Of a stretch of 64,000 nt of DNA, positions 8,839 to 63,509 are shown in pieces. The DNA comes from Nitrosopumilus sp. GTDB taxonomy: Archaea > Thermoproteota > Nitrososphaeria > Nitrososphaerales > Nitrosopumilaceae. The DNA lies in NCBI GenBank assembly GCA_965219345.1, contig OZ244732.1:1440001-1504000 (forward strand), in the 5' to 3' direction. Each line of letters starts with the position of its first letter. The stretch's first letter is position 1. Under the pieces are notes generated by a model. It saw only the letters and a program-made list of their open reading frames with translations, was not told the origin of the DNA and did no database searches. Position numbers and translations under genes: made by a program.

Positions 8839-8934
8839 GGACAGAACACAGATACAGTCACAGTCTGTGGATGACAGCCAATGAGTGCTACTGCAGCAGA
8901 TAAGGACAGGACACAGATATAGTCACAGTCTGTG
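8839..8934. repeat. 31-bp direct repeat with 34-bp spacer
   Basis: GGACAG(A/G)ACACAGATA(C/T)AGTCACAGTCTGTG at 8839-8869 and 8904-8934. Confidence 0.9.
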
Positions 8935-10270
8935 TAATCTGACCTGTAAAGTCTGGACTGATGTCGCCACCAATTTGAACTTGCAGCCAGTTGACATTTT
9001 CCCCGTCAGGAGGGATAAAAGCGGTAAACACTCTGTCTGTTTCAGATATTAAGTGTATATTCTCGTATGCAATGCGCCGGTCATCAGAGTACCTTGTCTG
9101 CCCCACATCCATGATTGGGGTACCATGACTGTCCAGCCAGTCAGTGCCAGATATTGACATACCACCATAAGTAGTGCCAGTATTCTTGGTTGCAAGTCTC
9201 TTTTTATCCGAAATATCGCCATATGCCAGACTGCCAAAGTCCAGATCAGCGGATACCCTGACTGAGCATATAGGAACATCAGTAGCGCCAGAGGCATCCA
9301 GCGTGACGTCAATTGTTTTTGATGCAATCTCGTTTAGGGACCCTACGATAGTGCCGTTTGCAGCAACGGTACCGTAAGGCAGACTGGCAGTCGCATTGTA
9401 TGAAAAAGAGTCATTACTAAACACGCCTCTGATGACATAATATTTGGTACCATTTTCCAAGGTTACGGGAGTTATGACTGATCCGTCATCTGTCGTCTCA
9501 GGAAGGTCAAGTCCGACTATTGCATTACTTACAGGGAGATCAAAGGAGGGAAATGGAACCGCGAAGTCGAAGAAGCCATCACCGGGAGGTTGCAAACCAA
9601 TCAGGTCATCATCACGGTCAAGCACGACTACGCCGGAACTGTTGGAGAACTTTGTAAAGTCATCCCTGAACGTTACGGATGGCTTTTCACCTACCGTAAT
9701 CTCCACGGGTATGGTCTTGGTTGCCCCGGTAGTAGTACAGGTCGCATTCCCGGCATTACCGGTATAGGTGAACTCTTTTATGACAATGTCAAACGTATCG
9801 ATGCCCGTATATGTAGCACCGGGGATGTAGTCAAATTCGGCAAGCATTGTGGGGTCGTGGCCAAAGTCATCCGTAGCACAGGTTATGGCAGGTACCTGAT
9901 TGCCAAGATCATGATAGTCGTATGGTAATATGGGATCTCCGGATGCCACAAGGCTGCCGCCCTCTTCAGTGGTCAGGGGGTCGGGAAACACGGCAATCCA
10001 GGGATTGTCACTGCCGGGTTGTCTAAGGTTGATGGCATTATGATATGTGGGATGAACACGATCCTCTGTTACCAGGGACAGATCATGGGCAATCGTACCA
10101 TATCCGACATCGTATCTCAGTGTTGGAAGAATCTCCACGTCAGCATCATTGACTGACTGGCCATACGCATGGCCTGCAGTCACTGCTACTGCTGCTACTG
10201 CTGCTACCACTGTTATCGCTGCAGCCATCAGGATCGCCGCAACAGTGCCGTCCCTCTTCTTTAGTGTCAC
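8888..10270 (-). CDS. secreted/surface protein paralogue 2
   Basis: 460 aa; signal peptide; shares long identical blocks with 2587-3966. Confidence 0.85.
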   Translation of the reverse strand: MTLKKRDGTVAAILMAAAITVVAAVAAVAVTAGHAYGQSVNDADVEILPTLRYDVGYGTIAHDLSLVTEDRVHPTYHNAINLRQPGSDNPWIAVFPDPLTTEEGGSLVASGDPILPYDYHDLGNQVPAITCATDDFGHDPTMLAEFDYIPGATYTGIDTFDIVIKEFTYTGNAGNATCTTTGATKTIPVEITVGEKPSVTFRDDFTKFSNSSGVVVLDRDDDLIGLQPPGDGFFDFAVPFPSFDLPVSNAIVGLDLPETTDDGSVITPVTLENGTKYYVIRGVFSNDSFSYNATASLPYGTVAANGTIVGSLNEIASKTIDVTLDASGATDVPICSVRVSADLDFGSLAYGDISDKKRLATKNTGTTYGGMSISGTDWLDSHGTPIMDVGQTRYSDDRRIAYENIHLISETDRVFTAFIPPDGENVNWLQVQIGGDISPDFTGQITQTVTISVSCPYLLQ

Positions 10271-10281
10271 TGACTGTATAC

Positions 10282-10303
10282 GGGGGGGGGGGGGGGTAAA
10301 TAA
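10282..10303 (-). promoter_or_regulatory. TATA-like TTATTTA followed by C15 tract
   Basis: G15 at 10282-10296. Confidence 0.7.
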
Positions 10304-10376
10304 CTATATCGGAGGGTGGTTCTGTGTAATCTTCGGGACTTGAGAAATATGGAAAAATGATTTTTTTGATCAATTT

Positions 10377-10619
10377 TTAGATTTGTCTTACATCATAAAG
10401 ATCAAATGTAATATTTTTAGTTCCTAAAACAGCTTGAAACACAATGTTATCGTCTACAGCTATTTGCATTACATTGTCTGTTAGAAAACCACCGCCTAAT
10501 TCTTGTACTTCTAAATTGATTTGTCTAAAATGAGCAATCATATTGTTTATGTTGCCTTGTATAACTGGATGTAGAGGAGAAAAGAGAGCATTGTATCTTT
10601 CCGTAAATCTGTCAACCAT
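10377..10619 (-). CDS. hypothetical passenger protein inside the IS6 element
   Basis: 80-aa ORF divergent from the transposase. Confidence 0.45.
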   Translation of the reverse strand: MVDRFTERYNALFSPLHPVIQGNINNMIAHFRQINLEVQELGGGFLTDNVMQIAVDDNIVFQAVLGTKNITFDLYDVRQI

Positions 10620-10625
10620 TATGAG

Positions 10626-11252: not shown

Positions 11253-11441
11253 ATCCTTAGAAGATCCATATTTCTCAAGTCCCGAAGATTACACAGAACC
11301 TCTCAAAGACCGGCCGAGGTCTCATTGATGCCTCCCTCTGTTTCTTCCATATCAAATACAAGACCCGACAGTGTTGCAAACACCCCATGTCTTACACGTT
11401 CTGACAGTCCGAACCTCCTACGGTGTGATTTCAGGCTAGGG

Positions 11442-12821: not shown

Positions 12822-12832
12822 TGACTGTATAC

Positions 12833-12851: not shown

Positions 12852-12884
12852 CTATATCGATCAAGGGTTATGTAACGTTATCGA

Positions 12885-14405: not shown

Positions 14406-14412
14406 TCTTTTC

Positions 14413-24127: not shown

Positions 24128-24258
24128 GGATCAGAAATTTGAACAGCAGGGTCGCCAGCTCACTTTCGGACGGCAGGGCGATACAGGTCACTACCTTTGG
24201 ACAGCTAGGGATCAGTAATTTGAACAGCAGGGTCGCCGACTCACTTTCGGACGGCAGG
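24128..24258. repeat. 50-bp direct repeat with 31-bp spacer beside an IS6-like end
   Basis: 24128-24177 vs 24209-24258 (3 mismatches); the same words recur in the end-like sequence at 24296-24365. Confidence 0.85.
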
Positions 24259-42699: not shown

Positions 42700-42756
42700 T
42701 GCCGTTTTTGCGTCCTAAACCCGGGACATTTGGGTTAGTGTTGCGCTGTACATCTT

Positions 42757-42856
42757 GGGGTTTTCAGTGCCGTTACATTCGGGGTTTTCAGTGCCGTTAC
42801 ATTCGGGGTTTTCAGTGCCGTTACATTCGGGGTTTTCAGTGCCGTTACACTCGGGG
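42757..42856. repeat. tandem 24-bp repeat x4
   Basis: GGGGTTTTCAGTGCCGTTACATTC three times exact, fourth with one mismatch. Confidence 0.95.
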
Positions 42857-43310
42857 TCTGGTGTCACGTATGGAGATAGGCATTTTATGAAATTAGAGAC
42901 GATAGTGATTCCCAACTTGTTGACACAACTCAGTTTGAAGTCCGGATATTGGCAAGTCGGGAATCTTATCTGAATATGAACAGCTTTGCCAGTAATCTTA
43001 TCTTTGGTTTTCTCCATGCACTCATCAATAAAGGATTCTACAATATCCATTCCAGTTCCGGTTGTTCCACTAATTGCACAAATGGTACCAGGCCGTGTGC
43101 GGTAATAGTGCCATGCAGTAAATCATGCTCCTTTAGGCACATACAGTTAAAATGATAATCTTTCTGATCCATGTCTTTTAATTTTTCATTCTCTTTTTGG
43201 CGTGGAATCGTTGTTTGATTTCTTGATGCCTTATGACAATCAAGTAGAATTTCTAAACTGATCTGCTTGTCATTCAATAATGAAGGCAATTATTTCTTAT
43301 TCATAAATAC

Positions 43311-43603
43311 GGTTCCGGCAAATTCTGGTGATTTACACCATAAATCATCAGACATGGTTCTTCTCCGAAGTTTACTGCAACCGCATCATACCAACGTTCA
43401 GAAAATAAATCATCAGACATGGTTCTTCCCCGAACCGCTCTTTGAAATCCTGGGATAACCAGTACCTGTAACTTTCTCGAAATATCCATCACAACCCTGC
43501 TGTGATAACTCCCTTTGAGCCATCACATAAACTTGGCACAAAACTGCAAAGTGCAATTCAGAGAAGATCCATATTTCACTCATCACCAGAATTTGCCAGA
43601 TCC
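43311..43603. mobile_element. IS6-related MITE (293 bp)
   Basis: Ends GGTTCCGGCAAATTCTGGTGAT / ATCACCAGAATTTGCCAGATCC (20/22); subterminal AGAAGATCCATATTTC shared with the IS6 right end; related end at 62271-62321. Confidence 0.8.
43340..43434. repeat. 30-bp direct repeat with 35-bp spacer
   Basis: ATAAATCATCAGACATGGTTCTTC(T/C)CCGAA at 43340-43369 and 43405-43434. Confidence 0.9.
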
Positions 43604-47749: not shown

Positions 47750-47823
47750 TTTATATATATGAGCATTAACTACCATTTTTTGTGAGCATCAACAGAATAA
47801 CGGGGGGGGGGGGGTGTGTGTGA
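47750..47823 (+). promoter_or_regulatory. TATA box, candidate leaderless GTG and G13 slippage tract
   Basis: TTTATATA at 47750, GTG at 47782, G13 at 47802-47814, in-frame TGA at 47821. Confidence 0.7.
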
Positions 47824-50800
47824 AAATAAAGAGATGGAGAGAATTTCCTTTGTTATTTTAATTTCCACGCTGATGTTGGCCTCTTTGTCCATTGTTCCGG
47901 CACATGCGGCGGAGCACCCGACAATCATCGCAGCTTCTGTGACCTCGGCTACCAGCATAGTCCTGACGTACAGCGAGAACGTTGACGTCAACGCCACGGA
48001 CGGCGCAGGATTTGGCCTCTCTGACGGGGGAAAAGTGACGGCAAACACCGATCCCGCGGGTTCGGGCAACACCATAACCCTTACGGTCTCCGGCATTACC
48101 AACACATCCGATACTCCGGATGTGACTTATATCGAATCTGATGGCACCGTGGCAGACGGCGCATCAAACCCGGCAGCGAGCCAGATCTTTACCGGCACAG
48201 TAGATGATGCGCCGCCAACCGTGTCCTCCATTGCAACTTCCAGTGCATCGACAATTGATATCGTACTGTCCGAGAACGTCACAGTAAACGGTGCGGCACC
48301 AGGAGACTTTGTGCTGTCTGGCACCATATCCACAGACCCGACCGTGACTGGAATCACGGCCGCTGCAGACACGGTCACCCTTTCCCTTAACGATACGCTT
48401 GATGGCGATGATGTCATCAGACTGGCATACACCAGAACCATGAGCAGCATAGATGACATTTCTCTCACGTCCTTTGTCGACTCTTTCTCAGTGAAGGCAA
48501 TAGAAGACGAAGATCCGCGAAGCCTGGCCTTCTCTGGTGACGGATATAAGATATTTATTTTGGATGGTATTGCCGATGCCGTACACGAGTACACGCTAAC
48601 CGCCCCATTTGACATATCCAATGCCGCCCCTGTCAGCTCTTTCTCAGTGGCATCAGAAGACGAAGATCCGCGAGGCCTGGCCTTCTCTGGCGACGGAACA
48701 AAGATGTTTGTCGTGGGTACTTTTGACGATGGTGATGTACACGAGTACGCGCTAGCCGTCCCCTTTAACATATCCGATGCCACCTCTGCCAATTCCTTCT
48801 CAACGAGATCACAAGACTCATACCCGCGAAGCCTGGCCTTCTCTGGCGACGGAACAAAGATGTTTGTCGTAGATAGTATTGGTAAGGACGTAAACGAGTA
48901 CACGCTAACCGCCCCATTTGACATATCCAATGCCACCTTTGTCGACTCTTTCTCACTGGTGCCATCAAACGTAACATTCCCACAGGGTTTGACCTTCTCT
49001 AATGACGGAACAAGGATGTTTGTTGTAGATAGTAATAGTAACGATGTACACGAGTACGCGCTAACCGCCCCCTTTGACGTATCGACCGCCACCTTTGTCG
49101 ACTCTTTCTCACTGGTGCCATCAAACATAGCATTCCCACAGGGTTTGACCTTCTCTAATGACGGAACAAGGATGTTTGTTACGGATTTTGATACCTCTGA
49201 CGTATACGAGTACGCGTTATCAAAGCCATTTACGCTATTCCCGCAGCCAAACTCCCTTGACAGCTTTGTGACAACCCTGGTCACAAACAACATTGTTCCG
49301 CCAACAATCACCGCGGCTGCCGTGACTTCCCTTACCGAGATAGTCCTGACGTACAGCGAGAACGTTGACGTCACAACCACAAACGGCGAAGGATTCACCC
49401 TATCTGTCGGAACGGTGACGGCAAACACCGATCCCGCGGGTTCGGACGACACCATAACCCTTACCGTCTCTGGCATCACAACATCCGATGCTCCAGTTAT
49501 AACTTACATCGCTCCACCTGGCACCGTGGTTGACGCGGAATCAAACCCGGCAGCAGACCAGACCTTTACCGGTACAACCGATGACGCGCCGCCAATCGTG
49601 TTCTCCATTGCAACTTCCAACATGTCGGCAATTGACATCGTGCTGTCCGAAGACGTCACAGTCAGCTCCGTGGCACCGGAAGACTTTGTGCTGTCCAGCA
49701 CCATATCCACAGACCCTACCGTGACCGGAATCACGGCCCTTAACGACACGGTCACCCTTTCCCTTAACGACACGCTTGCCCATAATGATGTCATCAGCCT
49801 GGCATACAACAAAGCCACGGGCAGCATAGATGACATTCTTGCTCCTCCGTCCTTTGTCGGCTCTTTCTCGGTGGCTTCACAAGACAACACTCCGACAGGC
49901 CTGGCCTTCTCTGATGACGGAACAAAGATGTTTGTCGTAGGTCTTACCGGCACTGACATAAACGAGTACGCGCTAACCGCCCCATTTGACATATCCAATG
50001 CCGACTTTGTCGACTCTTTCTCAGTAGGCTCACAAGAGGCATTCCCGGCAGACCTGGCCTTCTCTGCTAACGGAACAAAGATGTTTGTCATAGGTCTTGC
50101 CGGCAATGACATAAACAAGTACACGCTAACCGCCCCATTTGACGTATCCACTGCCTCCTTTGTCGACTCTTTCCAAGTATCTCAAACGGATATATCCCCG
50201 CGGAGCCTGGCCTTCTCCAACGACGGAACAAAGATGTTTGTTCTGGATATTTTCGGCGGTGACAGTTACGTAAACGAGTACACGCTAAATGGCCCCTTTG
50301 ACGTATCCACTTCCTCCTTTGTCGACTCTTTCTCAGTGGCATCACACGCACCATCCCCGCAGGGTCTGGCTTTCTCTGATGACGGAACCAAGATGTTTGT
50401 TTCGTCTTCTGACAACGATGCCGTAATCAAGTACGCATTAACCGCCCCCTTTGACGTGTCCACTGCCTCCTTTGTCGACTCTTTCTCCGTGTCATCACAG
50501 GGATTCGCCCTGACAGCCCTGGCCTTCTCTGATGACGGAACAAGGATGTTTGTTCTGGAAAATGACAGCAATGCCGTATACGAGTACGCGCTGTCAGAGC
50601 CATTTACGCTATTCCCGCAGCCAAACTCGCTTGCCAGCTTTGCGGCAATGTCGGTCACAAACAACATTGTACCGCTAGACACCGTTCCACCAACAATCAC
50701 CGCGGCTGCCGTGACCTCCCTTACCGAGATAGTCCTGACGTACAGCGAGGACATAGACGTCACAACCACAAACGGCGCGGGATTCACCCTATCTGTCGGA

Positions 50801-53800
50801 ACGGTGTCGGCAACCTCTGATCCCGCGGGTTCGGACGACACCATAACCCTTACCGTCTCTGGCATCACAACATCCGATACTCCAAACGTGACTTACACCG
50901 CATCCGACGGCTCCGTAGCAGACAGCGCATTAAACCAGGCAGCGAGCCAGACCTTTACCGGCACAACCGATAACGCGCCGCCAACCGTGCTCTCCATTGT
51001 AACTAACGACACATCAACAATTAACATCGTGCTGTCCGAAAACGTCACAATAAACGGTGCGGCACCGGAAGACTTTGCGCTGTCCAGCACCATATCCACA
51101 GACCCGGCCGTGACCGGAATCACCGCTGTTACAAACAACACGGTAGCCCTTGCCCTTGACGATACGCTTGACAGCAATGATGTCATCCTACTGGCATACA
51201 CCAAGACCACGGGCAGCATAGATGACATCCCTCTTCCGCCCCTTGACGGCTCCTTCCCAGTAGATATGCAAGACTCGGAATCAACTGGCCTGGCCTTCTC
51301 TAATGACGGAACAAGGATGTTTGTAGTGAGTACTGGTAGTGATAGCGATAACGATGCCGTACACCAGTACACACTAACCGCCGCCTTTGACGTGTCCACT
51401 GCTACCTTTGTCGACTCTTTCTCAGTAGGTTCACAAGACACATTCCCGTCAGGCCTGGCCTTCTCTGGTGACGGAACAAAGATGTTTGTTGTGGGTAGTT
51501 TCGACAATAACATAAACGAGTACACACTAACCACCGCCTTTGACGTGTCCACTGCCACCTCTGCCAACTCCTTCTCAGTATCCTCACAAGACATACTCCC
51601 GCTAGACATGGCCTTCTCTGCTGACGGAACAAAGATGTTTGTCTTGGGCGATGCTGGCGATGACATAAACGAGTACACGCTATCCGCCCCCTTTGACGTA
51701 TCGAATGTCGCCGGCACATCGGATGTCACCTTTGTCGACTCTTTCCCAGTGGCATCACAAGACAGATCCACGCAGGGCCTAACCTTCTCTGCTGACGGAA
51801 CGAGGATGTTTGTAGTGGGTAGTATCAACGGTGCCGTATACGGGTACGCACTAACCGCCGCCTTTGACGTGTCCACCGCCACCTTTGTCGACTCTTTCTC
51901 AGTGACATCACAAGACAGATTCCCGCGGGGCCTGGCCTTCTCTGCTGACGGAACGAGGATATTTGTCTTGGGTAGTGACAGCAAGAACGTACACCAGTAC
52001 GCGCTATCTGAACCATTTACGCTATTCCAACAGCCAAACTCCCTTGCCAGCTTTGCGGCAATGTCAGTCACAAACAACATTCCATCAGACACCACCCCGC
52101 CAACAATCACCGCAGCTGCCGTGACCTCCCTTACCGAGATAACCCTGACGTACAGCGAGAACATAGACGTCACAACCACAAACGGCGAAGGATTTACCCT
52201 ATCTGTCGGACAAGTGACGGCAAATACTGATCCCGACAATTCGGACGACACCATAACCCTTACCATCTCCGGCATCACCGCATCCGATGCTCCAGACGTG
52301 ATTTACACCGAGTCTGATGGCTCCGTGACAGACGGCGCATCAAACCCTGCAGCGAGCCAGACCTTTACCGGCACCACCCCGCTGCCGGATACTATTCCAC
52401 CAACAATCACCGCAGCTGCCGTGACCTCCCTTACCGAGATACTCCTGACGTACAGCGAGAACATAGACGTCACAACCACAAACGGCGAAGGATTCATCCT
52501 ATTTGTCGAAGGAACGGTGTCGGCAAACTCTGATCCCGACAATTCGGGCAACACCATAACACTTACCGTCTCCGGCATCACCGCATCCGATGCTCCAAAC
52601 GTGATTTACACCGAATCTGATGGCTCCGTGACAGACGGCGCATCAAACCCGGCAGCGAGCCAGACCTTTACCGGCACCACCCCGCTGCCGGACACCGTTC
52701 CACCAACAATCACCGCAGCTGCCGTGACCTCGGCTACCAGCATAACCCTGACGTACAGCGAGAACATAGACGTCACAACCACAAACGGCCAAGGATTCTC
52801 CCTCTCCGTCGGACAGGTGACGACAAACACCGATCCCGCCGGTTCGGCAGACACCATAACCCTTACGGTCTCCGGCATCCCCTCTACCTCTCATAGACCG
52901 GATGTGACTTACGCCGCATCTGATGGCACCGTGACAGACAGCGCGTCAAACCCGGCAGCAAGCCAGACCTTTACCGGCACAGTAGATGATGCGCCGCCAA
53001 CCGTGTCTTCCATCGAAACTTCCAGCACATCAACAAATGCAATTGATGTCGTGCTGTCCGAAGACGTTACAGTCAACTCTGTAGAATCCAGGGACTTTGT
53101 ACTGTCTGGCACCATATCCACAAACCCGGCCTTGACCGCAGTCACGGTAGCTGCCGACACGCTCACCCTTCACCTTAACGCTGCGCTTGCTCATGATGAT
53201 GTCATCAATCTGGCATACACCAAAACCACGGGCAGCATAGATGACATTGCTCTCCCGTCCTTTGTCGACTCTTTCCCAGTGGCTTCACGGGATACATTCC
53301 CGTCAGGCCTGGCCTTCTCCAACGACGGAACAAAGATGTTTGTCGCAGGTGATAGCACCGATTCCGTACACCAGCACGTGCTGTCCGCCCCCTTTGACGT
53401 ATCCACTTCCAACTTTGTCCGCTCTTTCTCAATAAACGCACAAAGCACATCCCCGCAGGGTCTGGCCTTCTCCAACGACGGAACAAAGATGTTTGTCACA
53501 GATAGTTTCAAAAGTACCGTAAACGAGTACACGCTGTCCGCCCCCTTTAACATATCCAATGCCACCTTTGTCCAATCTACCTCCCTGGCTCTAAATGCTT
53601 TACAGCCACACGGTCTGGCCTTCTCTACTAACGGAACACTGATGTTTGTCGCAAGTGATTTCAACGATAGCGTATACAATTACTTGCTGTCCACCCCCTT
53701 TGATCTGTCGTCTTACATCCCTATCGACTCTTTCTCAGTGGCATCACAAGATGTAGATCCACGGCACCTGGCCTTCTCCAACGACGGAACAAAGATGTTT

Positions 53801-56800
53801 GTCACAGGTGATGCTAGCGATAGCGTACACGAGTACACACTATCCCGCCCCTTTGACACACTCACTGCCGACTTTGACAGCTCCTTCTCCGTGTTCTCAC
53901 AGGATACATCCCCGACAGGCCTGGCCTTCTCCAATGACGGAATAAGGATGTTTGTCGTGGGTGATTTCGGCAATGACATAAACGAGTACATACTGCCAAA
54001 GCCATTTGCGCTATTCCCACAGCCAAACTCCCTTGCCAGCTTTGCGGCAACCTTGGTCACAAACAACGTTGCACCGACACCGCCACCCGATGACATTGAT
54101 CCCTCGATAGATACCACCCTGCCAACAATCACCGCAGCTGCCGTGACCTCCCTTACCGAGATACTCCTGACGTACAGCGAGGACATAGACGTCACAACCA
54201 CGGACGGCGAAGGATTCGCCCTTTCCACCGGAACGGTGCATGCAAACACCGATCCCGCCGGTACGGCAGACACCATAACACTTACCGTCTCCGGCATTAC
54301 CGCATCCGATGCTCCAGACGTGATTTACACCGAGTCTGATGGCAACGTGGAAGATACCGCGTCAAACGAGGCAGCGAGCCAGACCTTTACCGGCACCACC
54401 CAGCTGCCGGACACTATTCCACCAACAATCACCGCAGCTTCCGTGACCTCGGCTACCAGCATAACCCTGACGTACAGCGAGAACATAGACGTCACAACCA
54501 CAAACGGCGCGGGATTCTCCCTTTCCACCGGGCAAGTGTCGGCAAACACCGATCCCGCCGGTTCGGACGACACCATAACCCTTACCGTCTCTGGCATCAC
54601 AACATCCGATGCTCCAGCTATAACTTACATCGCTCCACCTGGCACCGTGGTTGACGCGGAATCAAACCCGGCAGCAGACCAGACCTTTACCGGCACAACC
54701 GATGACGCGCCTCCAACCGTGTCCTCCATTGCAACTGCCAGCACATCAACAATTAACATCGTGCTGTCCGAAAACGTCACAATAAACGGTGCGGCACCGG
54801 AAGACTTTGTGCTGTCCAGCACCATATCCACAGACCCGGCCGTGACCGGAATCACCGCTGTTACAAACAACACGGTAGCCCTTGCCCTTGACGATACGCT
54901 TGACAGCAATGATGCCATCCTCCTGGCATACACCAAGACCACGGGCAGCATAGATGACATCCCTCTTCCGCCCCTTCTCAGCTCCTTCCCAGTAGGTATA
55001 CAAGGCTCGGGATCAAACGGCATGGCCTTCTCTAATGACGGAACAAGGATGTTTGTAGTGAGTAGTGGTAGTGGTAGCGATAACGATGCCGTACACCAGT
55101 ACACACTAACCGCCCCCTTTGACGTATCCACTGCCACCTTTGTCGACTCTTTCTCAGTGGCATCACAAGACACAGTACCGCAAGGCCTGGCCTTCTCTGG
55201 TGACGGAACAAAGATGTTTGTTGTGGGTGGTTTCGACAATAACATAAACGAGTACACACTATCCGCCGCCTTTGACGTGTCCACTGCCACCTCTGCCAAC
55301 TCCTTCTCAGTGGCATCACAAGACACAGCCCCGCTAGACATGGCCTTCTCTGCTGACGGAACAAAGATGTTTGTCTTGGGCGGTGCTGGCGATGCCGTAT
55401 ACGAGTACACGCTAACCGCCCCCTTTGACGTATCGAATGTCGCCGGCACATCAGATGTCACCTTTGTCGACTCTTTCCCAGTGGCATCAGAAGACACAGC
55501 CCCGACAGGCCTGGCCTTCTCTGGTAACGGAACTAGGATGTTCGTTGTAGGTAATTTTAACGATGCCGTATACGAGTACGCACTAACCGCCCCCTTTGAC
55601 GTGTCCACTGCCACCTCTGCCAACTCCTTCTCAGTATCCTCACAGGACCAATCCCCGACAGGCCTGGCCCTCTCTGCTGACGGAACGAGGATATTTGTCT
55701 TGGGTGATAACAGCGAGAACGTACACCAGTACGCGCTATCTGAACCATTTACGTTATTCCTACAGCCAAACTCCCTTGCCAGCTTTGCGGCAATGTCAGT
55801 CACAAACAACATTGCATCACCACCCGCTGAAATTGATCCCTCGATAGATACCACCCCACCAACAATCATCGCAGCTGCCGTGACCTCCCTTACCGAGATA
55901 CTCCTGACGTACAGCGAGGACATAGACGTCACAACCACGGACGGCACGGGATTCGCCCTCTCCGTCGGAACGGTGCATGCAAACACCGATCCCGCCGGTT
56001 CGAACGACACCATAACCCTTACCGTCTCCGGCATCGCCGCATCCTATACTCCAGCTATAAGTTATACCACATCTGATGGCACCGTGACAGATACCGCGTC
56101 AAACCAGGCAGCAAACCAGGTCTTTGCCGGCACCACCCCGCTACCCGATACCACCCCACCAACAATCACCGCAGCTGCCGTGACCTCGGCTACCAGCATA
56201 GTCCTGACGTACAGCGAGAACATAGACGTCACAACTACAGACGGCGAAGGATTCGCCCTCTCTGATGGAGGAACGGTGTCGGCAAACTCTGATCCCGCCA
56301 GTACGGACGACACCATAACCCTTACCGTCTCTGGCATCACAGCATCCGATGCTCCAAACGTGATTTACACCGAGTCTGATGGCTCCGTGACAGACAGCGC
56401 ATCAAACCCGGCAGCGAACCAGACCTTTACCGGCACCACCCCGCTGCCGGACACCGTTCCACCGGAAATCACCGCAGCTGCCGTGACCTCGGCTATCAGC
56501 ATAGTCCTGACGTACAGCGAGAACATAGACGTCAGCACCACAAACGGCCAAGGATTCTCCCTCTCCGTCGGACAGGTGACGACAAACACCGATCCCGCCG
56601 GTTCGGCAGACACCATAACCCTTACGGTCTCCGGCATCCCCTCTACCTCTCATAGACCGGATGTGACTTACGCCGCATCTGATGGCACCGTGACAGACAG
56701 CGCGTCAAACCCGGCAGCAAGCCAGACCTTTACCGGCACAACCGATGACGCGCCGCCAACGGTATCTTCCATCGAAACTTCCAGCACATCAACAAATGCA

Positions 56801-59800
56801 ATTGACGTCGTGCTGTCCGAAAACGTTACAATAAACGGTGCGACACCGGAAGACTTTGCGCTGTCCGGCACCCTATCCACATACCAGCGCGTGACCGGAA
56901 TCACGGCCCTTGCCGACACGGTAACCCTTACCCTCAATGATACGCTTGACAGTGATGATGTCATCAGCCTGGCATACACCAAAGGCACTGGCAGCATAGA
57001 TGACATTTCTCTCACGTCCTTTGTTGATTCTTTCTCAACAGTTTTCCAAGATATATCCCCACAGGGTTTGGCATTCTCTGGTGACGGAACAAAGATGTTT
57101 GTCGCAGGTGGTGATACCGATACCGTATACGAGTACGCACTAGCTGTCCCCTTTGACGTGTCCACTGTCCGCTACAATGGCAACTCCTTCTCAGTGGCTT
57201 CACAGGACACATCCCCACAGGGTTTGGCCTTCTCTAATGACGGTACCAGGATGTTTGTCGCAGGTAATTTCGGCAATGACGTAAACGAGTACACGCTAAC
57301 CGCCCCCTTTGACGTGTCCACTGTCACCTTTGTCGACTCTTTCTCAGTGGCTTCACAAGACGAATCCCCACAGGGTTTGGCCTTCTCCAATGACGGTACT
57401 AGGATGTTTGTCGCAGGTCGCGTTAGCAATGCCGTATACGAGTACGCGCTGACCGCCCCCTTTGACGTGTCCACTGCCAGCTATGGCAGCTCCTTCCCAG
57501 TAGGTTCACAGGACACATCCCCACAGGGCCTGGCCTTCTCCAACGACGGAACAAGGATGTTTGTCGCAGGTGATATTGGCAATGACGTAAACGAGTACAC
57601 ACTAACCTCCCCCTTTGACGTATCCACTGCCACCTTTGTCGACTTTTTCTCACTGGCGACATCAAGCGCATCATCCCCGCAGGGTTTGGCCTTCTCCAAT
57701 GACGGTACCAGGATGTTTGTTGCGGATTTTGATACCTTTGGCGTACACGAGTACGCGCTGTCAAAGCCATTTGCGCTATTCCCACAGCCAAACTCGCTTG
57801 CCAGCTTTGCGGCAACCTTGGTCACAAACAACATTGCATCACCACCCGCTGAAATTGATCCCTCGATAGATACCACCCCACCAACAATCACCGCAGCTGC
57901 CGTGACCTCCCTTACCGAGATACTCCTGACATACAGCGAGAACATAGACGTCACAACCACGGACGGCACGGGATTCGCCCTTTCCACCGGAACGGTGCAT
58001 GCAAACACCGATCCCGCCAGTACGGCAGACACCATAACCCTTACCGTCTCCGGCATCGCCGCATCCGATACTCCAGCTATAAGTTATACCACATCTGATG
58101 GCACCGTGACAGATACCGCGTCAAACCAGGCAGCAAACCAGGTCTTTGCCGGCACCACGGCGCTGCCGGACACCATTCCGCCAACAATCACCGCAGCTGC
58201 CGTGACCTCCCTTACCGAGATACTCCTGACGTACAGCGAGAACATAGACGTCACAACCACGGACGGCGCAGGATTCACCCTCTCTGACGGAGGAACGGTG
58301 TCGGCAAACTCTGATCCCGCCAGTACGGACGACACCATAACCCTTACCGTCTCTGGTATCACCACAGCATCCGATGCTCCAAACGTGATTTACACCGAGT
58401 CTGATGGCTCCGTGACAGATACCGCGTCAAACCCGGCAGCAAACCAGACCTTTACCGGCACCACCCCGCTGCCGGACACTGTTCCACCGGAGATCACCGC
58501 AGCTGCCGTGACCTCGGCTACCAGCATAGTCCTGACGTACAGCGAGAACATAGACGTCACAACCACAGACGGCGCAGGATTCACCCTCTCTGACGGACAA
58601 GTGACGGCAAACACCGATCCCGCCGGTTCGGACGACACCATAACGCTTGCCGTCTCCGGCATCACAGCATTCGATGCTCCAAACGTGATTTACACCGAGT
58701 CTGATGGCTCCGTGACAGATACCGCGTCAAACCAGGCCGAAGACCAGACCTTTGCCGGCACCACGGCGCCGCCGGACACTATTCCACCAACAATCACCGC
58801 AGCTGCCGTGACCTCCCTTACCGAGATACTCCTGACATACAGCGAGAACATTGACGTCAGCACCACGAACGGCGCAGGATTCGCCCTCTCTGACGGAGGA
58901 ACAGTGTCGGCAAACACCGATCCCGACAATTCGGGCAACACCATAATCCTTACCGTCTCTGGCATCACCACAGCTGATACTCCAGCCATAACCTACACCG
59001 CTCCACCTGGCACCGTGGTTGACAACGCGTCAAACCCGGCAGCAGACCAGACCTTTGCCGGCACCACCCCGCTACCCGATACTATTCCACCAAGAATCAC
59101 CGCAGCTGCCGTGACCTCCCTTACCGAGATACTCCTGACGTACAGCGAGAACATTGACGTCACAGCCACGAACGGCGCAGGATTCGCCCTCTCTGACGGA
59201 GGAACAGTGTCGGCAAACACCGATCCCGACAATTCGGGCAACACCATAATCCTTACCGTCTCTGGCATCACCACAGCTGATACTCCAGCCATAACCTACA
59301 CCGCTCCACCTGGCACCGTGGTTGACAACGCGTCAAACCCGGCAGCAGACCAGACCTTTGCCGGCACCACCCCGCTACCCGATACTATTCCACCAAGAAT
59401 CACCGCAGCTGCCGTGACCTCCCTTACCGAGATACTCCTGACATACAGCGAGAACATAGACGTCACAGCCACGAACGGCGAAGGATTCGCCCTCTCTGAC
59501 GGAGGAACAGTGTCGGCAAACACCGATCCCGCCGGTACGGGCAACACCATAATCCTTACCGTCTCTGGTATCACCACAGCATCCGATGCTCCAAACGTGA
59601 TTTACACCGAGTCTGACGGCACCGTGACAGATACCGCGTCAAACCCTGCAGCGAGCCAGACCTTTGCCGGCACCACCCCGCTACCCGATACTATTCCACC
59701 AACAATCACCGCAGCTGCCGTGACCTCCCTTACCGAGATAGTCCTGACGTACAGCGAGAACATAGACGTCACAGCCACAAACGGCCAAGGATTCGCCCTC

Positions 59801-62056
59801 TCTGACGAAGGAACGGTGTCGGCAAACACCGATCCCGACAATTCGGGCAACACCATAATCCTTACCGTCTCCGGCATTACCGACACATCCGATGCTCCAA
59901 ACGTGATTTACACCGAGTCTGACGGCACCGTGACAGATACCGCATCAAACCCTGCAGCGAGCCAGACCTTTACCGGCACCACCCCGCTGCCGGACACTAT
60001 TCCACCAACAATCACTGCGGCTTCTATGACCTCGGCTACCAACATGACCCTGACATACAGCGAGAACATAGACGTCACAACCACGAACGGCGCAGGATTC
60101 GCCCTCTCTGACGGAGGAACAGTGTCGGCAAACACCGATCCCGACAATTCGGGCAACACCATAATCCTTACCGTCTCCGGCATTACCGACACATCCGATA
60201 CTCCAGCCATCACCTATACCGCTCCACCTGGCACCGTGGTTGACAACGCGTCAAACCAGGCAGCAAACCAGACCTTTACCGGTACAACCGATAACGCGCC
60301 GCCAACCGTATCCTCCATTGCAACTGCCGGCACATCAACAATTGATATCGTGCTGTCCGAAGACGTCACAATAAACGGTGCGGCACCCGAAGACTTTGCG
60401 CTGTCCGGCACCATATCCACGGACCCAGTCGTAACCGGAATCACCGCCATTGCCGCCGCTGCTGCCAACACGGTCACCCTTGCCCTTGACGATACGCTTG
60501 ATCATGACGATGTCATCCTCCTGGCATACACCAAGACCACGGGCAGCATAGATGACATTCCTGCCGCTTCTGTCATCCTTGACACCTCCTTCTCCGTGTC
60601 CTCACAGAGCGACTTCCCGACAGGCCTAACCTTCTCTGCCAACGGAACAAAGATGTTTGTTCTAAGTGATGGTGACGATGCCGTATACGAGTACGCGCTA
60701 ACCGCCCCCTTCGACGTGTCTTCCGCCACCTTTACCAGATCTGACGTGTCTTCCGCCACCTTTACCAACTCTTCCTCAATGCCACAGGACACACTCCCGA
60801 CAGGCCTAACCTTCTCTGCCAACGGAACAAGGATGTTTGTCGTAGGTGATAGTCAAAACGTAATCGAGTACACGCTAACCGCCCCCTTTGACCTGTCTGC
60901 TGCTGTCACCTTTGCCAGCTTCTTCTCAGTGGCATCGCAAGTACAATCCCCGACAGGCCTAACCTTCTCTGCCAACGGAACAAAGATGTTTGTCGTGGAT
61001 GACAATGACGATGCCGTATACGAGTACACATTAACCGCCCCCTTTGACGTATCCACTGCCGTCCCTGCCGGCTCCTTCTCCATATCCTCACAGGACACAT
61101 TGCCATTTGGCATAACCTTCTCCGATGACGGTACCAGGATGTTTGTCGTAGGTAATTCTAACGGCAAGGTAAACGAGTACGCATTAACCACCGCCTTTGC
61201 CGTATCCACTGCCTCCTTTGCCGGCTCTTTTTCAACAGTTCCACAAGAGACGTTCCCATATGACCTGGCCTTCTCCGGTGACGGTACCACGATGTTCGTC
61301 GTAGGCATTAATAGCGATGCCGTATACCAGTACGCGCTGCCCGAACCGTTTACGCTATTCCCACAGCCAAACTCGCTTGCCAGCTTTGCGGCAGCCCCAG
61401 TCACAAACAACAACATTGCACCGCCCGTTGCGGATGATACGGAGGAACCAGAACCTGAACCGGAAAGAAAGCCCGAAAAGAGTGGTAGAGGCGGTGGTGG
61501 CGGCGGCCGTACCGGCGTCAGTCCAGCCGGAGGAGGAGAACCCCTGTCCAACATTGAGCTTTACGGCGTTTCATGGAACTGTGAGACGGGCCTAATCAGA
61601 ATAATAACCGGTGATGACTCGCCTACGCTGTCGGTATCCGTCAGAACCTCCATTGGCGGCCTGGCCGAGGCCAGCCTGTCCGATGAAAGAATACCCGGCA
61701 GCAAGGTATTCACATCCCATATGGGGCCTTCCGAGACATACCTTGGCATACTGCTGGTGGACATAGCGGGACGGGACAGCAACATTAGAAACGAAAGCAT
61801 CAGCATAAAACAGTGCGTTGGCGAGAAGACATATGATGGTGATGGTGATGGTGATGGTGATGGTGATGGTGACGCATCCGATACGCCAAAAAAGTCCCAG
61901 TCCAGTAGTAGCAGCAGCAGCGCATCCAAAGGCGACATGGAATGCAAGCCGGGCTTTACGCTGGTCAAGAACCTGAGAGATGATCTTGCCTGCCTCCTTG
62001 ACCGCTCGGTACAGCCGCTGATGGAGCGCGGCTGGGTAGAATCAATAGTCGGATAA
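47816..62056 (+). CDS. giant repetitive surface protein/adhesin (Ig/SwmB-like repeats and seven beta-propeller modules)
   Basis: 4746 aa; signal peptide MERISF..PAHA; about 19 PTITAAAVTS repeats; 7 x 5 blades with GLAFSxDGTKMFV; C-terminal C..G..L...AC...LMERGW motif. Confidence 0.93.
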   Translation: MCENKEMERISFVILISTLMLASLSIVPAHAAEHPTIIAASVTSATSIVLTYSENVDVNATDGAGFGLSDGGKVTANTDPAGSGNTITLTVSGITNTSDTPDVTYIESDGTVADGASNPAASQIFTGTVDDAPPTVSSIATSSASTIDIVLSENVTVNGAAPGDFVLSGTISTDPTVTGITAAADTVTLSLNDTLDGDDVIRLAYTRTMSSIDDISLTSFVDSFSVKAIEDEDPRSLAFSGDGYKIFILDGIADAVHEYTLTAPFDISNAAPVSSFSVASEDEDPRGLAFSGDGTKMFVVGTFDDGDVHEYALAVPFNISDATSANSFSTRSQDSYPRSLAFSGDGTKMFVVDSIGKDVNEYTLTAPFDISNATFVDSFSLVPSNVTFPQGLTFSNDGTRMFVVDSNSNDVHEYALTAPFDVSTATFVDSFSLVPSNIAFPQGLTFSNDGTRMFVTDFDTSDVYEYALSKPFTLFPQPNSLDSFVTTLVTNNIVPPTITAAAVTSLTEIVLTYSENVDVTTTNGEGFTLSVGTVTANTDPAGSDDTITLTVSGITTSDAPVITYIAPPGTVVDAESNPAADQTFTGTTDDAPPIVFSIATSNMSAIDIVLSEDVTVSSVAPEDFVLSSTISTDPTVTGITALNDTVTLSLNDTLAHNDVISLAYNKATGSIDDILAPPSFVGSFSVASQDNTPTGLAFSDDGTKMFVVGLTGTDINEYALTAPFDISNADFVDSFSVGSQEAFPADLAFSANGTKMFVIGLAGNDINKYTLTAPFDVSTASFVDSFQVSQTDISPRSLAFSNDGTKMFVLDIFGGDSYVNEYTLNGPFDVSTSSFVDSFSVASHAPSPQGLAFSDDGTKMFVSSSDNDAVIKYALTAPFDVSTASFVDSFSVSSQGFALTALAFSDDGTRMFVLENDSNAVYEYALSEPFTLFPQPNSLASFAAMSVTNNIVPLDTVPPTITAAAVTSLTEIVLTYSEDIDVTTTNGAGFTLSVGTVSATSDPAGSDDTITLTVSGITTSDTPNVTYTASDGSVADSALNQAASQTFTGTTDNAPPTVLSIVTNDTSTINIVLSENVTINGAAPEDFALSSTISTDPAVTGITAVTNNTVALALDDTLDSNDVILLAYTKTTGSIDDIPLPPLDGSFPVDMQDSESTGLAFSNDGTRMFVVSTGSDSDNDAVHQYTLTAAFDVSTATFVDSFSVGSQDTFPSGLAFSGDGTKMFVVGSFDNNINEYTLTTAFDVSTATSANSFSVSSQDILPLDMAFSADGTKMFVLGDAGDDINEYTLSAPFDVSNVAGTSDVTFVDSFPVASQDRSTQGLTFSADGTRMFVVGSINGAVYGYALTAAFDVSTATFVDSFSVTSQDRFPRGLAFSADGTRIFVLGSDSKNVHQYALSEPFTLFQQPNSLASFAAMSVTNNIPSDTTPPTITAAAVTSLTEITLTYSENIDVTTTNGEGFTLSVGQVTANTDPDNSDDTITLTISGITASDAPDVIYTESDGSVTDGASNPAASQTFTGTTPLPDTIPPTITAAAVTSLTEILLTYSENIDVTTTNGEGFILFVEGTVSANSDPDNSGNTITLTVSGITASDAPNVIYTESDGSVTDGASNPAASQTFTGTTPLPDTVPPTITAAAVTSATSITLTYSENIDVTTTNGQGFSLSVGQVTTNTDPAGSADTITLTVSGIPSTSHRPDVTYAASDGTVTDSASNPAASQTFTGTVDDAPPTVSSIETSSTSTNAIDVVLSEDVTVNSVESRDFVLSGTISTNPALTAVTVAADTLTLHLNAALAHDDVINLAYTKTTGSIDDIALPSFVDSFPVASRDTFPSGLAFSNDGTKMFVAGDSTDSVHQHVLSAPFDVSTSNFVRSFSINAQSTSPQGLAFSNDGTKMFVTDSFKSTVNEYTLSAPFNISNATFVQSTSLALNALQPHGLAFSTNGTLMFVASDFNDSVYNYLLSTPFDLSSYIPIDSFSVASQDVDPRHLAFSNDGTKMFVTGDASDSVHEYTLSRPFDTLTADFDSSFSVFSQDTSPTGLAFSNDGIRMFVVGDFGNDINEYILPKPFALFPQPNSLASFAATLVTNNVAPTPPPDDIDPSIDTTLPTITAAAVTSLTEILLTYSEDIDVTTTDGEGFALSTGTVHANTDPAGTADTITLTVSGITASDAPDVIYTESDGNVEDTASNEAASQTFTGTTQLPDTIPPTITAASVTSATSITLTYSENIDVTTTNGAGFSLSTGQVSANTDPAGSDDTITLTVSGITTSDAPAITYIAPPGTVVDAESNPAADQTFTGTTDDAPPTVSSIATASTSTINIVLSENVTINGAAPEDFVLSSTISTDPAVTGITAVTNNTVALALDDTLDSNDAILLAYTKTTGSIDDIPLPPLLSSFPVGIQGSGSNGMAFSNDGTRMFVVSSGSGSDNDAVHQYTLTAPFDVSTATFVDSFSVASQDTVPQGLAFSGDGTKMFVVGGFDNNINEYTLSAAFDVSTATSANSFSVASQDTAPLDMAFSADGTKMFVLGGAGDAVYEYTLTAPFDVSNVAGTSDVTFVDSFPVASEDTAPTGLAFSGNGTRMFVVGNFNDAVYEYALTAPFDVSTATSANSFSVSSQDQSPTGLALSADGTRIFVLGDNSENVHQYALSEPFTLFLQPNSLASFAAMSVTNNIASPPAEIDPSIDTTPPTIIAAAVTSLTEILLTYSEDIDVTTTDGTGFALSVGTVHANTDPAGSNDTITLTVSGIAASYTPAISYTTSDGTVTDTASNQAANQVFAGTTPLPDTTPPTITAAAVTSATSIVLTYSENIDVTTTDGEGFALSDGGTVSANSDPASTDDTITLTVSGITASDAPNVIYTESDGSVTDSASNPAANQTFTGTTPLPDTVPPEITAAAVTSAISIVLTYSENIDVSTTNGQGFSLSVGQVTTNTDPAGSADTITLTVSGIPSTSHRPDVTYAASDGTVTDSASNPAASQTFTGTTDDAPPTVSSIETSSTSTNAIDVVLSENVTINGATPEDFALSGTLSTYQRVTGITALADTVTLTLNDTLDSDDVISLAYTKGTGSIDDISLTSFVDSFSTVFQDISPQGLAFSGDGTKMFVAGGDTDTVYEYALAVPFDVSTVRYNGNSFSVASQDTSPQGLAFSNDGTRMFVAGNFGNDVNEYTLTAPFDVSTVTFVDSFSVASQDESPQGLAFSNDGTRMFVAGRVSNAVYEYALTAPFDVSTASYGSSFPVGSQDTSPQGLAFSNDGTRMFVAGDIGNDVNEYTLTSPFDVSTATFVDFFSLATSSASSPQGLAFSNDGTRMFVADFDTFGVHEYALSKPFALFPQPNSLASFAATLVTNNIASPPAEIDPSIDTTPPTITAAAVTSLTEILLTYSENIDVTTTDGTGFALSTGTVHANTDPASTADTITLTVSGIAASDTPAISYTTSDGTVTDTASNQAANQVFAGTTALPDTIPPTITAAAVTSLTEILLTYSENIDVTTTDGAGFTLSDGGTVSANSDPASTDDTITLTVSGITTASDAPNVIYTESDGSVTDTASNPAANQTFTGTTPLPDTVPPEITAAAVTSATSIVLTYSENIDVTTTDGAGFTLSDGQVTANTDPAGSDDTITLAVSGITAFDAPNVIYTESDGSVTDTASNQAEDQTFAGTTAPPDTIPPTITAAAVTSLTEILLTYSENIDVSTTNGAGFALSDGGTVSANTDPDNSGNTIILTVSGITTADTPAITYTAPPGTVVDNASNPAADQTFAGTTPLPDTIPPRITAAAVTSLTEILLTYSENIDVTATNGAGFALSDGGTVSANTDPDNSGNTIILTVSGITTADTPAITYTAPPGTVVDNASNPAADQTFAGTTPLPDTIPPRITAAAVTSLTEILLTYSENIDVTATNGEGFALSDGGTVSANTDPAGTGNTIILTVSGITTASDAPNVIYTESDGTVTDTASNPAASQTFAGTTPLPDTIPPTITAAAVTSLTEIVLTYSENIDVTATNGQGFALSDEGTVSANTDPDNSGNTIILTVSGITDTSDAPNVIYTESDGTVTDTASNPAASQTFTGTTPLPDTIPPTITAASMTSATNMTLTYSENIDVTTTNGAGFALSDGGTVSANTDPDNSGNTIILTVSGITDTSDTPAITYTAPPGTVVDNASNQAANQTFTGTTDNAPPTVSSIATAGTSTIDIVLSEDVTINGAAPEDFALSGTISTDPVVTGITAIAAAAANTVTLALDDTLDHDDVILLAYTKTTGSIDDIPAASVILDTSFSVSSQSDFPTGLTFSANGTKMFVLSDGDDAVYEYALTAPFDVSSATFTRSDVSSATFTNSSSMPQDTLPTGLTFSANGTRMFVVGDSQNVIEYTLTAPFDLSAAVTFASFFSVASQVQSPTGLTFSANGTKMFVVDDNDDAVYEYTLTAPFDVSTAVPAGSFSISSQDTLPFGITFSDDGTRMFVVGNSNGKVNEYALTTAFAVSTASFAGSFSTVPQETFPYDLAFSGDGTTMFVVGINSDAVYQYALPEPFTLFPQPNSLASFAAAPVTNNNIAPPVADDTEEPEPEPERKPEKSGRGGGGGGRTGVSPAGGGEPLSNIELYGVSWNCETGLIRIITGDDSPTLSVSVRTSIGGLAEASLSDERIPGSKVFTSHMGPSETYLGILLVDIAGRDSNIRNESISIKQCVGEKTYDGDGDGDGDGDGDASDTPKKSQSSSSSSSASKGDMECKPGFTLVKNLRDDLACLLDRSVQPLMERGWVESIVG
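61834..61872 (+). repeat. (GATGGT)n microsatellite encoding poly(Asp-Gly)
   Basis: GATGGT x6 followed by GAC. Confidence 0.9.
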
Positions 62057-62149
62057 CACGTGTGTACGGTAGTGAGGCAAAGCCGCAATCGCGCTTGCCT
62101 GTATGGTTACGTCACGCATGACCCTGTCTTTGGTCTAGTAGTCTCATCG

Positions 62150-62321
62150 GGTTCTGGTAAAAAACGGTGATCAAGATCACCAAAAATTAACAGCAGGGTT
62201 ATGACAGATAATTTCAAGAAAATTACCATGTACTAATTATCCTAGGATTTCAAAGAGCGATTCGGAGAGAGGATCCATATCTGATGATTTATGGTGCAGA
62301 TCACCAGAATTTACTAGAATC
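62150..62321. mobile_element. cluster of IS6-like ends / MITE remnant
   Basis: GGTTCTGGTAAAAAACGGTGATC at 62150; 62271-62321 resembles the reverse complement of 43311-43362. Confidence 0.7.
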
Positions 62322-62535
62322 GGTGTTGCCGTTGTTGCAGAAATTATTCTTGTATCTGACATTTTTGTCCTGATTGAGAAGATGGTTTTTTCTTAAAAAG
62401 TCAAAATAATTGAGAATTAGTGTTATGTTGCGTTAGTGGAGCTTGACTCATAATTTTTACACTAGAAAGTTGGCGTGAGTTTTCGACAAATCAAAATAGA
62501 TGTAAAGATAGGGTGGTAGATAAAAAGTTAGGTGA

Positions 62536-63509
62536 TTATCGATCATTCACCACCAGTACATAATCAGGCAATAATGAGAAAGTATCTTCATCTCTATTGT
62601 TGTATCTCCATGCCATCTCCTTGATGTACAACAGAAACTTTTCAGAACTGACACCGTGATGCTTTGCCATTCTCTCTTTTGCAAAACTCCAAAAATCCTC
62701 AGTTCCGTTGATGCAGACATCGCCTTTTCCAAACATCCTACCGTGATCAGCTGACAAATGACGATAACCATGGAACATCAACGAATCATGATCTTTCCAC
62801 CTGTCTGTATACGCAATGCCTCCTTTCCTTACTTTCTTGACGGTTCCGGCAAGAAGTGTACTGACTTTCACATCTGTGACAATCTCAACGTGAACCTTTC
62901 CCTTTCTCTCCAAAATTCCAAATACAATTGTCCTGTTTTTGGCACCGCGTCCGCGATTTCCCTTTCCTTTGCCTCCAAAATACGCCTCATCAGCCTCAAT
63001 TTTGCCCTTTGGTTTCCTGTCTGACCTTGCAAGATGGCATGATATGGAGTGGTGCATACAGTCAAATGCATTTAGTGCGGTAGGATGACTGACATCTGCT
63101 TCCCTTGCTGCACGCAGGATGAAAACCAGGTAACGAAATCTGTCCTCTTCGTAGGATGACTGACATCTGCTTCCCTTGCTGCACGTCTTGCACTAATCCT
63201 AGGATCAAAGAGTTTGGTTAGAATCAACCATTTTGTAAAACCAATATTGATTGTATCCAACCATGTTCCGCCAAACGGCCTGTAATCTATTTTACAATCT
63301 TTGCACCTTAACTTTCCTCTTAATATGATGTAATACTTTTTGGAACCGCATGAGGTACGATGAACTGTATTTTTCTTTTGGAATTCCTTACAGGGAAATT
63401 CCAATGCGGCTGATTTGTTGTAAGTTATTTTGGATAGTTCAATCAGGTTGATTGTTTTTCCTAATAATTGTGTGAAATCAGTTGGCGGTAACAGGTTTAC
63501 AATCACCAA
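62536..63509 (-). mobile_element. IS1595-family transposase split by a 71-bp duplication-insertion
   Basis: Degenerate Zn ribbon, EADEAYFGG, YTD, INGTEDFWS, EMAWRYN; deleting 63115-63185 fuses the two ORFs. Confidence 0.9.
63080..63185. repeat. perfect 35-bp direct repeat with 36-bp spacer
   Basis: GTAGGATGACTGACATCTGCTTCCCTTGCTGCACG at 63080-63114 and 63151-63185. Confidence 0.97.

Follow-up and report, generated by a model that had tools for sequence, protein, structure and literature searches.

How did it come about that three unrelated loci of one archaeal genome display the same arrangement, in which a short piece of local sequence is present twice and encloses a short, unrelated insert? 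The loci lie in a stretch of 64,000 nucleotides (nt) from Nitrosopumilus sp., called the window below, which corresponds to C1:1440001-1504000 (C1 being the contig) of a two-contig genome of 1.91 Mb with 36% G+C. An initial annotation, made from the letters of the window, had described the three repeat-insert-repeat units and had ascribed them to an integrase that writes DNA of the size of a spacer, as found in CRISPR, into sites that are not part of a CRISPR array. A repeat search of the window recovered the three units at the places and with the sizes then described, and our own scan of it returned exactly these three, laid out as follows (window coordinates).

8839..8869, locus 1, first target copy, 31 nt, with 2 mismatches against the second copy
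8870..8903, locus 1, spacer-like insert, 34 nt, source not found
8904..8934, locus 1, second target copy, 31 nt
43340..43369, locus 2, first target copy, 30 nt, with 1 mismatch against the second copy
43370..43404, locus 2, insert, 35 nt
43405..43434, locus 2, second target copy, 30 nt
63080..63114, locus 3, first target copy, 35 nt, identical to the second copy
63115..63150, locus 3, insert, 36 nt, source not found
63151..63185, locus 3, second target copy, 35 nt

The answer that we favour, and hold to be very probable, is that such units are scars of CRISPR spacer integration, left by Cas1-Cas2 at sites foreign to CRISPR. We may take as a starting point a search through all 1.9 Mb of the genome, in which imperfect direct repeats of at least 22 nt were sought at all offsets from 25 to 300; it yielded 1175 non-overlapping pairs in 188 clusters, 97 of them solitary. 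The periods of the solitary pairs with repeats of 24-45 nt are sharply peaked: 27 fall at 70-74, 8 at 65-69, 4 at 75-79 and 3 at 60-64, and beyond 60-79 a period not divisible by 3 is found in only 5 solitary pairs. Chance is excluded because five block-shuffled genomes gave no pair at all (period 60-80, repeats of at least 24 nt). From the 42 candidates we removed 3 tandem repeats and 1 doubtful case (a 25-nt repeat in a repetitive gene), merged two candidate pairs that shared an insert, their host element having been duplicated, and added one unit from a duplicated module, which leaves 37 independent solitary units genome-wide, with a repeat that differs in every one of them.

These units fall into two size classes. 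Class 1 (30 of the 37) has periods of 68-76 and a duplication of about 36 nt around an insert of 32-41 nt; the apparent duplication measures 36-38 nt in 25 of the 30, which is what an exact 36-nt duplication with chance matches at its edges is expected to give. Class 2 comprises the other seven, with duplications of 27-32 nt (about 30 nt), periods of 64-67 and inserts of 34-39 nt. Locus 3 belongs to class 1, loci 1 and 2 to class 2. In class 1 the two copies are identical in 19 units and differ by 1-2 mismatches in 11, so that the events span a range of ages; only 11 of all 37 periods are divisible by 3, and there is therefore no sign of selection for retention of the reading frame.

The size of class 1 finds its counterpart in a CRISPR-Cas system resident in the same genome, where the Cas1 search advised by the initial annotation met an intact adaptation module beside a long array.

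C1:1641728-1653821, CRISPR array, 164 repeats of 36 nt (one with a single mismatch) and 163 spacers
Directly upstream of the array, Cas4/Cas1 fusion, a 561-aa frame without stops, matching NF049935 (Cas4g/Cas1g) with 754 bits
After Cas4/Cas1 and upstream of the array, Cas2, 95 aa, with a Pfam Cas2 match
Downstream of the array on the other strand, csb2 (cas5-6), cas7g, cas8g/csx17 and cas3g

The families NF049935, TIGR02165, TIGR02570, TIGR04113 and TIGR02621 all score above the NCBIfam cut-offs and, as far as gene content can tell, the system is a complete CRISPR-Cas of type I-G. Its spacers measure 35-40 nt in 150 of 163 cases and its start-to-start periods cluster at 72-74, so that the sizes of class 1 match those of the resident array, a result that lends support to the integrase proposed at the outset. 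The nearest relatives of the Cas4/Cas1 protein, at 83-60% identity, come from Nitrosopumilus or from metagenome-assembled genomes (MAGs) of Nitrosopumilaceae; others, at 50-57% identity, occur in MAGs titled Caldilineaceae and Dehalococcoidia, which hints that type I-G systems were exchanged between distant lineages. The ribosomal proteins encoded in the present genome are archaeal.

The same search disposes of another integrase. The initial annotation had evoked casposons, a notion that proved neither necessary nor borne out, as the genome holds no casposase and only two Cas1 matches, one being the fusion of type I-G and the other a fragment of 83 aa discussed below, without a third homologue. 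A casposon measures kilobases, carries terminal inverted repeats and makes duplications of about 14-15 bp. Here the payload is 32-41 nt long and the duplication 30-36 nt. The likeness that remains is that the casposase, an integrase of the Cas1 family, also makes a target-site duplication (PMC7786333). Insertion of a transposon or of a miniature inverted-repeat transposable element was likewise rejected, the inserts not being copies of one element, and so was a canonical array, each unit consisting of two copies of its own local sequence, with no upstream flank common to the units.

Several further repeats met during the scan were kept apart. At C1:451555-451726 and 464948-465266, two loci 13 kb from each other, a 35-nt sequence is present two or three times with gaps of about 102 nt (period 137); it is outside the CRISPR-like size class and was set aside. 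A pair of 32-nt repeats around an insert of 104 nt, at C1:604221, and protein-coding repeats of 72 nt and 153 nt were set aside as well. The only other short-range pair of the window, at 24128-24258, is not of the kind considered here: its copies are 50 nt long and its period, 81, is a multiple of 3. At C1:1432749-1432926, where a transposase frame of IS240 type begins (IS for insertion sequence), a module of period 73 shows three repeats and two identical inserts, and was evidently duplicated whole after integration.

If the units were written into pre-existing sequence, sites without them should exist. All three loci of the window have gap-free empty paralogues elsewhere in the genome, with one copy of the target and no insert: at C1:~333000 for locus 1, at C1:~1823230, ~951400 and ~907160 for locus 2, and in three paralogous IS copies for locus 3. 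Read in this comparison, the units are best described as derived insertions into local sequence, and the early notion that the repeats are pieces of the host gene or element stands. Two of the hosts are genes of the window:

8888..10270, minus strand, open frame of 460 aa from a gene family with several copies, without a Pfam match
62536..63509, minus strand, transposase gene of IS1595 type, divided by locus 3, its C-terminal piece matching PF12762 (E 3.9e-29)

Locus 1 occupies the final codons of the 460-aa gene, of which paralogues are present, and alters its C-terminus. Locus 2 has as its host a short element, present in several copies, which lies upstream of a serpin gene, and the same insert recurs at C1:1826968-1827002 in another copy of the element (C1:1826944), where it is the window insert inherited with the element. 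Locus 3 divides the transposase into the frames 63072-63509 and 62536-63057, and removal of 71 bp in silico restores an open frame of 304 aa. That all three loci lie in mobile elements, as first stated, is thus mostly right: it holds for locus 3 (IS1595-type) and for locus 2 (multi-copy element), and the host of locus 1 is a gene with paralogues and no Pfam match. Two targets of the window were also hit a second time. In the paralogue of the locus-1 target at C1:404166 an independent event (36 + 38 nt) left a different insert, with the target shifted by a few bases, and another copy of the locus-2 element was hit at C1:1824847 (36 + 32 nt).

Around these loci the window has peculiarities of its own. 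A tandem array of a 24-nt unit (about 5 copies, 42733-42876) stands just upstream of locus 2, and a 4746-aa open frame built of repeats of about 51 aa and about 100 aa occupies 47816-62056 on the plus strand; giant repeat genes of this type occur at several further sites of the genome, and the insert of the unit at C1:333476 partly matches their repeats.

Where, then, does the inserted DNA come from? The inserts of loci 1, 2 and 3 have no other match in the genome, save the copy of the locus-2 insert in its duplicated element, and no exact match in viral_contigs; that of locus 3 has none in metagenome_contigs, nor, even when as many as 3 mismatches were allowed, in any of 150 further genomes from the genus. 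Genome-wide, seven of the 37 inserts have a full-length match of 32-39 nt at a distant place of the chromosome, six of them exact and one with 1 mismatch. Among the 163 array spacers none has a full-length match outside the array (two partial matches cover 18-19 nt), a difference that is unlikely to be fortuitous (Fisher p = 4.5e-6). Five of the seven sources lie within long open frames of ordinary G+C, one of which, by eye from its translation, reads like a primase large subunit and another like a NuoL-type membrane subunit; of the remaining two, one is surrounded by a frame of no more than 40 aa and the other by a low-complexity frame. One of the matches also settled a doubtful boundary: the unit at C1:429362 is to be read as 36 + 37, and not as 33 + 40. 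In G+C the inserts (0.424) are close to the array spacers (0.420), the genome being at 0.36, and BLAST against the genome of the 39 inserts that remained once the 3 tandem repeats had been taken from the 42 candidates found no mutual similarity except in two pairs inherited with their host element. Three of the seven sources are situated within 52 kb of ordinary core DNA (C1:523291-575179), a region which may be a hot spot for spacer capture. The search for a protospacer adjacent motif (PAM) that the initial annotation had recommended found no clear PAM in the flanks of the seven usable sources.

It is at this point that a mechanism without Cas proteins has to be considered, be it replication slippage or template switching, filler DNA added at end-joining, or the footprint or target duplication of a transposable element. 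Repair can indeed yield direct repeats that flank short filler DNA, and several units are found in or near mobile elements. We nevertheless regard such an origin as extremely unlikely. The size distribution peaks at the values of the resident array instead of being broad; the inserts whose source is identified were all copied from far away on the chromosome, over exactly 32-39 nt, and not templated from adjacent DNA; the inserts have neither common sequence nor terminal repeats; and relatives that lack Cas1 hold 0-1 candidates per genome in the 680 kb sampled. We know of no transposon that duplicates a target of 30-36 bp around a payload of 35 bp.

The chance that we are dealing with an artefact of assembly or sequencing seems practically negligible, for all that the genome was judged from its two-contig assembly. 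Contigs from three runs of one study, which may include the source sample, break exactly at units, as a 36-nt repeat makes assemblies based on 31-mers do, and units of the same kind are present in four other genomes. To our knowledge, no sequencing platform has an error pattern that combines exact distant sources with exact target duplication. In an 18.5-kb stretch with four units, none of the joints listed for the contigs of four runs skips 71-74 nt, it being understood that contigs cannot show rare alleles. A 100-nt 'skip' at L052:1113-1215 is not an empty allele, since it carries 28-29 other letters and, by eye, resembles the empty paralogous IS copies.

The choice of targets tells us how far the phenomenon reaches beyond mobile elements. 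The unit at C1:1339320 splits a phosphate-type permease gene of an ATP-binding cassette (ABC) transporter, PF00528 being recognized on both pieces. It is an exact addition of 73 bp (37 + 36) to a gene that is uninterrupted in three aligned relatives and that forms 310-aa open frames in the two orthologues translated (G056 and G063); in BLAST, the alignment with many relatives of the genus falls into two pieces, with one target copy common to both. The same ABC transporter operon contains two units 640 bp apart (C1:1339320-1340069), one splitting the permease, the other near the start of the ATPase gene. Among the genes hit are transposases of the IS1595 and IS240 types, an HNH nuclease and one of Mrr type, a gene of the UDP-glucose dehydrogenase type, an Fn3/Ig surface protein, the ABC permease and, in its first codons, the ABC ATPase next to it; several units are located at gene ends. 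Mobile elements are therefore not the exclusive targets that the window had suggested. There is a bias of another kind: 19 of the 37 units lie in 2-kb stretches with a G+C of at least 0.42, which make up 11.4% of the genome (p = 3e-9), and this may reflect either tolerance or preference. Such stretches, about 11% of all 2-kb windows in a genome of 36% G+C, also form most of the window itself, and two genomes placed in the same genus (G002 and G018) have 53-54% G+C overall.

A weak motif common to the targets emerged when 29 class-1 sites were aligned by expectation-maximisation over orientation and offset: its total information reaches 11.98 bits, whereas 20 control sets gave 7.77 +/- 0.43 (maximum 8.94). 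A G at position 4 forms the strongest column, and C or G is favoured at position 36. Upstream of the class-1 targets no column is informative, so that no leader-like flank was detected.

Relatives allow us to ask whether the units follow the presence of cas genes. They are few and mutually related, and were sampled over 300-400 kb each.

G009, type I-G (36-nt repeat) and a 30-nt system, first 380 kb: 7 units of period 71-75, 1 of period 66, and one five-repeat array
G014, type I-G, 380 kb: 3 units
G017, a type I-G fragment only (plus the 30-nt system), 400 kb: 2 clean and 2 doubtful units
G018, a relic array of six repeats with a Cas1 fragment next to it, 400 kb: 2-3 units
G002, no Cas1 match, 380 kb: 1 candidate
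G010, no Cas1 match, 300 kb: 0 units

The gradient of unit density with Cas status across these genomes is suggestive and does not amount to a test. The array of G009 is of particular relevance to the proposal, made from the window, that misplaced integration might seed new arrays: at G009:C1:238779-239206, a 36-nt repeat that is not related to the resident one stands in five identical copies, which separate four different spacers of 36-38 nt, and beside them a 36-nt duplication, which overlaps the last repeat by 11 nt, encloses a further insert of 38 nt. An array on non-CRISPR sequence does occur in nature, as that proposal had anticipated.

One might then wonder whether the units are selected, functional mini-CRISPR loci, providing expressed guides or acting as decoys on mobile elements. 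Their enrichment in high-GC, probably foreign DNA, the two targets hit twice and the five-repeat array of G009 would agree with such a role. This seems very unlikely to us all the same: the 'repeat' is different in each unit and has no evident likeness to the resident repeat, which the enzyme of processing should require; several units disrupt cellular genes; seven inserts match the host's own core genes; and units in duplicated elements decay through point mutation.

We now come to class 2, to which two of the three window loci belong. The 83-aa Cas1 fragment mentioned above, a C-terminal piece at C1:1123019-1123234, shares 57-62% identity with the second Cas1 of G009 and G017, as against 30% with that of type I-G. 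In both relatives this second Cas1 adjoins arrays with 30-nt repeats and periods of 65-68, and exactly one 30-nt repeat of the type found in those arrays adjoins the fragment here (C1:1123019-1123277). Fragment and single repeat are, on this resemblance, the putative relic of a second CRISPR-Cas system that was lost from the genome; the genome-wide repeat scan found no array of period 64-67. Class 2 fits this lost system because its geometry matches the 30-nt arrays of G009 and G017 and because the relic is present. We consider it rather likely that loci 1 and 2 are to be assigned to the 30-nt-repeat system, and two different adaptation modules were probably involved in all.

Several facts fit the account less well, and they are best weighed together. 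The class-1 duplications are not always of 36 nt, 5 of the 30 measuring 32-35 nt, and in G009 the true duplications of five of the seven units are only 32-33 nt long (with inserts of 38-40 nt, for a sum of 71-73), despite a resident repeat of 36 nt. Under the target motif the resident repeat scores at the 91st percentile, which is not significant and gives no ground for a resemblance between target and repeat. The PAM is weak: only 3-4 of the 7 self-derived protospacers have TT in the flank in which the orientation of the target would lead us to expect it. G017 and G018, which have no intact type I-G cas4/1, contain 2-3 units per 400 kb; both do retain type I-G relics. G017, again, possesses the 30-nt system, and yet its 400-kb sample has no unit of period 64-68, when about 1.5 would be expected at the density of the present genome, a number too low for the absence to be informative; one such unit is situated 4.7 kb from its array. 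The link between class 2 and the 30-nt system is drawn from geometry and the relic by themselves. More generally, the comparison covers parts of a small number of genomes that are related to one another, the support is comparative throughout, and the activity of the enzymes is a prediction from their sequences.

Two of these facts, the variable stagger of G009 and the missing class-2 units of G017, would be in keeping with a single integrase, the resident type I-G Cas4/1-Cas2 having written class 2 as well (loci 1 and 2 included), with an imprecise ruler at sites devoid of repeat signals. Each of the two hot spots, moreover, received two hits at positions that overlap, one leaving a duplication of 36 nt and the other one of 30/31 nt. 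We see this as unlikely, although less so than the other alternatives: the G009 units with a short stagger keep a period of 71-73 and inserts of 38-40 nt, whereas class 2 keeps the 64-67 of 30-nt arrays, and the relic of the 30-nt-repeat system is there in this genome.

We can thus sketch how Cas1-Cas2 integration would have produced the units. The integrase, a Cas4/Cas1 fusion of type I-G with Cas2, would carry a DNA fragment of spacer size and attack the two strands of an ordinary chromosomal site at positions about one repeat-length apart; repair of the gaps would then duplicate the stretch between the nicks, leaving the local sequence, an insert of 32-41 nt and the local sequence again. 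Locus 3 and 29 other units would have been written in this way by the resident type I-G module, and loci 1 and 2, with 5 other units, most probably by the second module, that with the 30-nt repeat, since lost. Units would persist where they do little harm, at gene ends, in mobile elements and in dispensable genes. Inserts derived from the host itself would be tolerated since the 'repeats' newly formed around them are no CRISPR repeats, and presumably no guide RNA is then made from them.

The elements of such a process have been described elsewhere. Off-target integration and 'neo-CRISPR' arrays were reported in Escherichia coli overproducing type I-E Cas1-Cas2, and, going by papers that cite this work, the likeness is close: DNA of spacer size enters outside the array, a stretch of repeat length is duplicated, and reuse of the site can start an array (Nivala, Shipman and Church, 2018, Nat Microbiol). 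The differences are that the present events are natural and fixed, not induced by overexpression, that they are found in an archaeon with a type I-G Cas4/Cas1 fusion, that they number about 37 in 1.9 Mb, with similar densities in two type I-G relatives, that 19% of their inserts are self-derived, and that there is a second size class, which suggests a system since lost. A preprint that cites this work terms the natural evidence 'circumstantial' only, in two other species. The type I-G (I-U) Cas4/1-Cas2 of Geobacter sulfurreducens belongs to the same family (NF049935) and acquires mainly 36-bp spacers, of which some are chromosomal, about 30% of the unique spacers being unmatched to the plasmid; a TTN PAM goes with about half of the unique spacers, and integration takes place at the leader-proximal repeat of the array, whereas here it affects ordinary chromosomal sequence (PMC6547450). 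The 'ectopic spacer acquisition' of Streptococcus also departs from the leader-proximal repeat; it occurs within the array, at a genuine internal repeat, and not, as here, outside arrays in unrelated sequence (PMC7999890). In the literature searched we found no report of a natural genome with dozens of off-target integrations, a point on which the natural examples of Nivala et al. may bear. The mechanism is already known. Its scale in nature is unusual and, in that literature, appears to be unreported; unusual too are the inserts derived from the host, the trace of a system since lost and the natural new array in a relative.

What would this mean for these archaea? If Cas1-Cas2 is indeed the author of the units, CRISPR adaptation has a measurable mutagenic cost, paid in split genes such as those of the ABC permease and of transposases. 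Self-derived spacers would be acquired often and purged only where they can be expressed, as the contrast between seven of 37 outside the array and none of 163 inside it would then indicate, and new arrays could begin in nature at ordinary sequence. As scars outlive the system that wrote them, they can record CRISPR-Cas types that have been lost. A bolder version, purely hypothetical, would see in the enrichment of units in high-GC foreign DNA a form of targeting, that is, an insertional disabling of invaders that is independent of guides. Somewhat short of even confidence, we also entertain the view that off-target integration is an ongoing, lineage-wide mutational force in Nitrosopumilus-like archaea, which leaves tens of scars per genome, disables genes and mobile elements and gives birth to new arrays; were this so, their genomes would constitute a readable natural record of the origins of arrays and of what adaptation costs its host.

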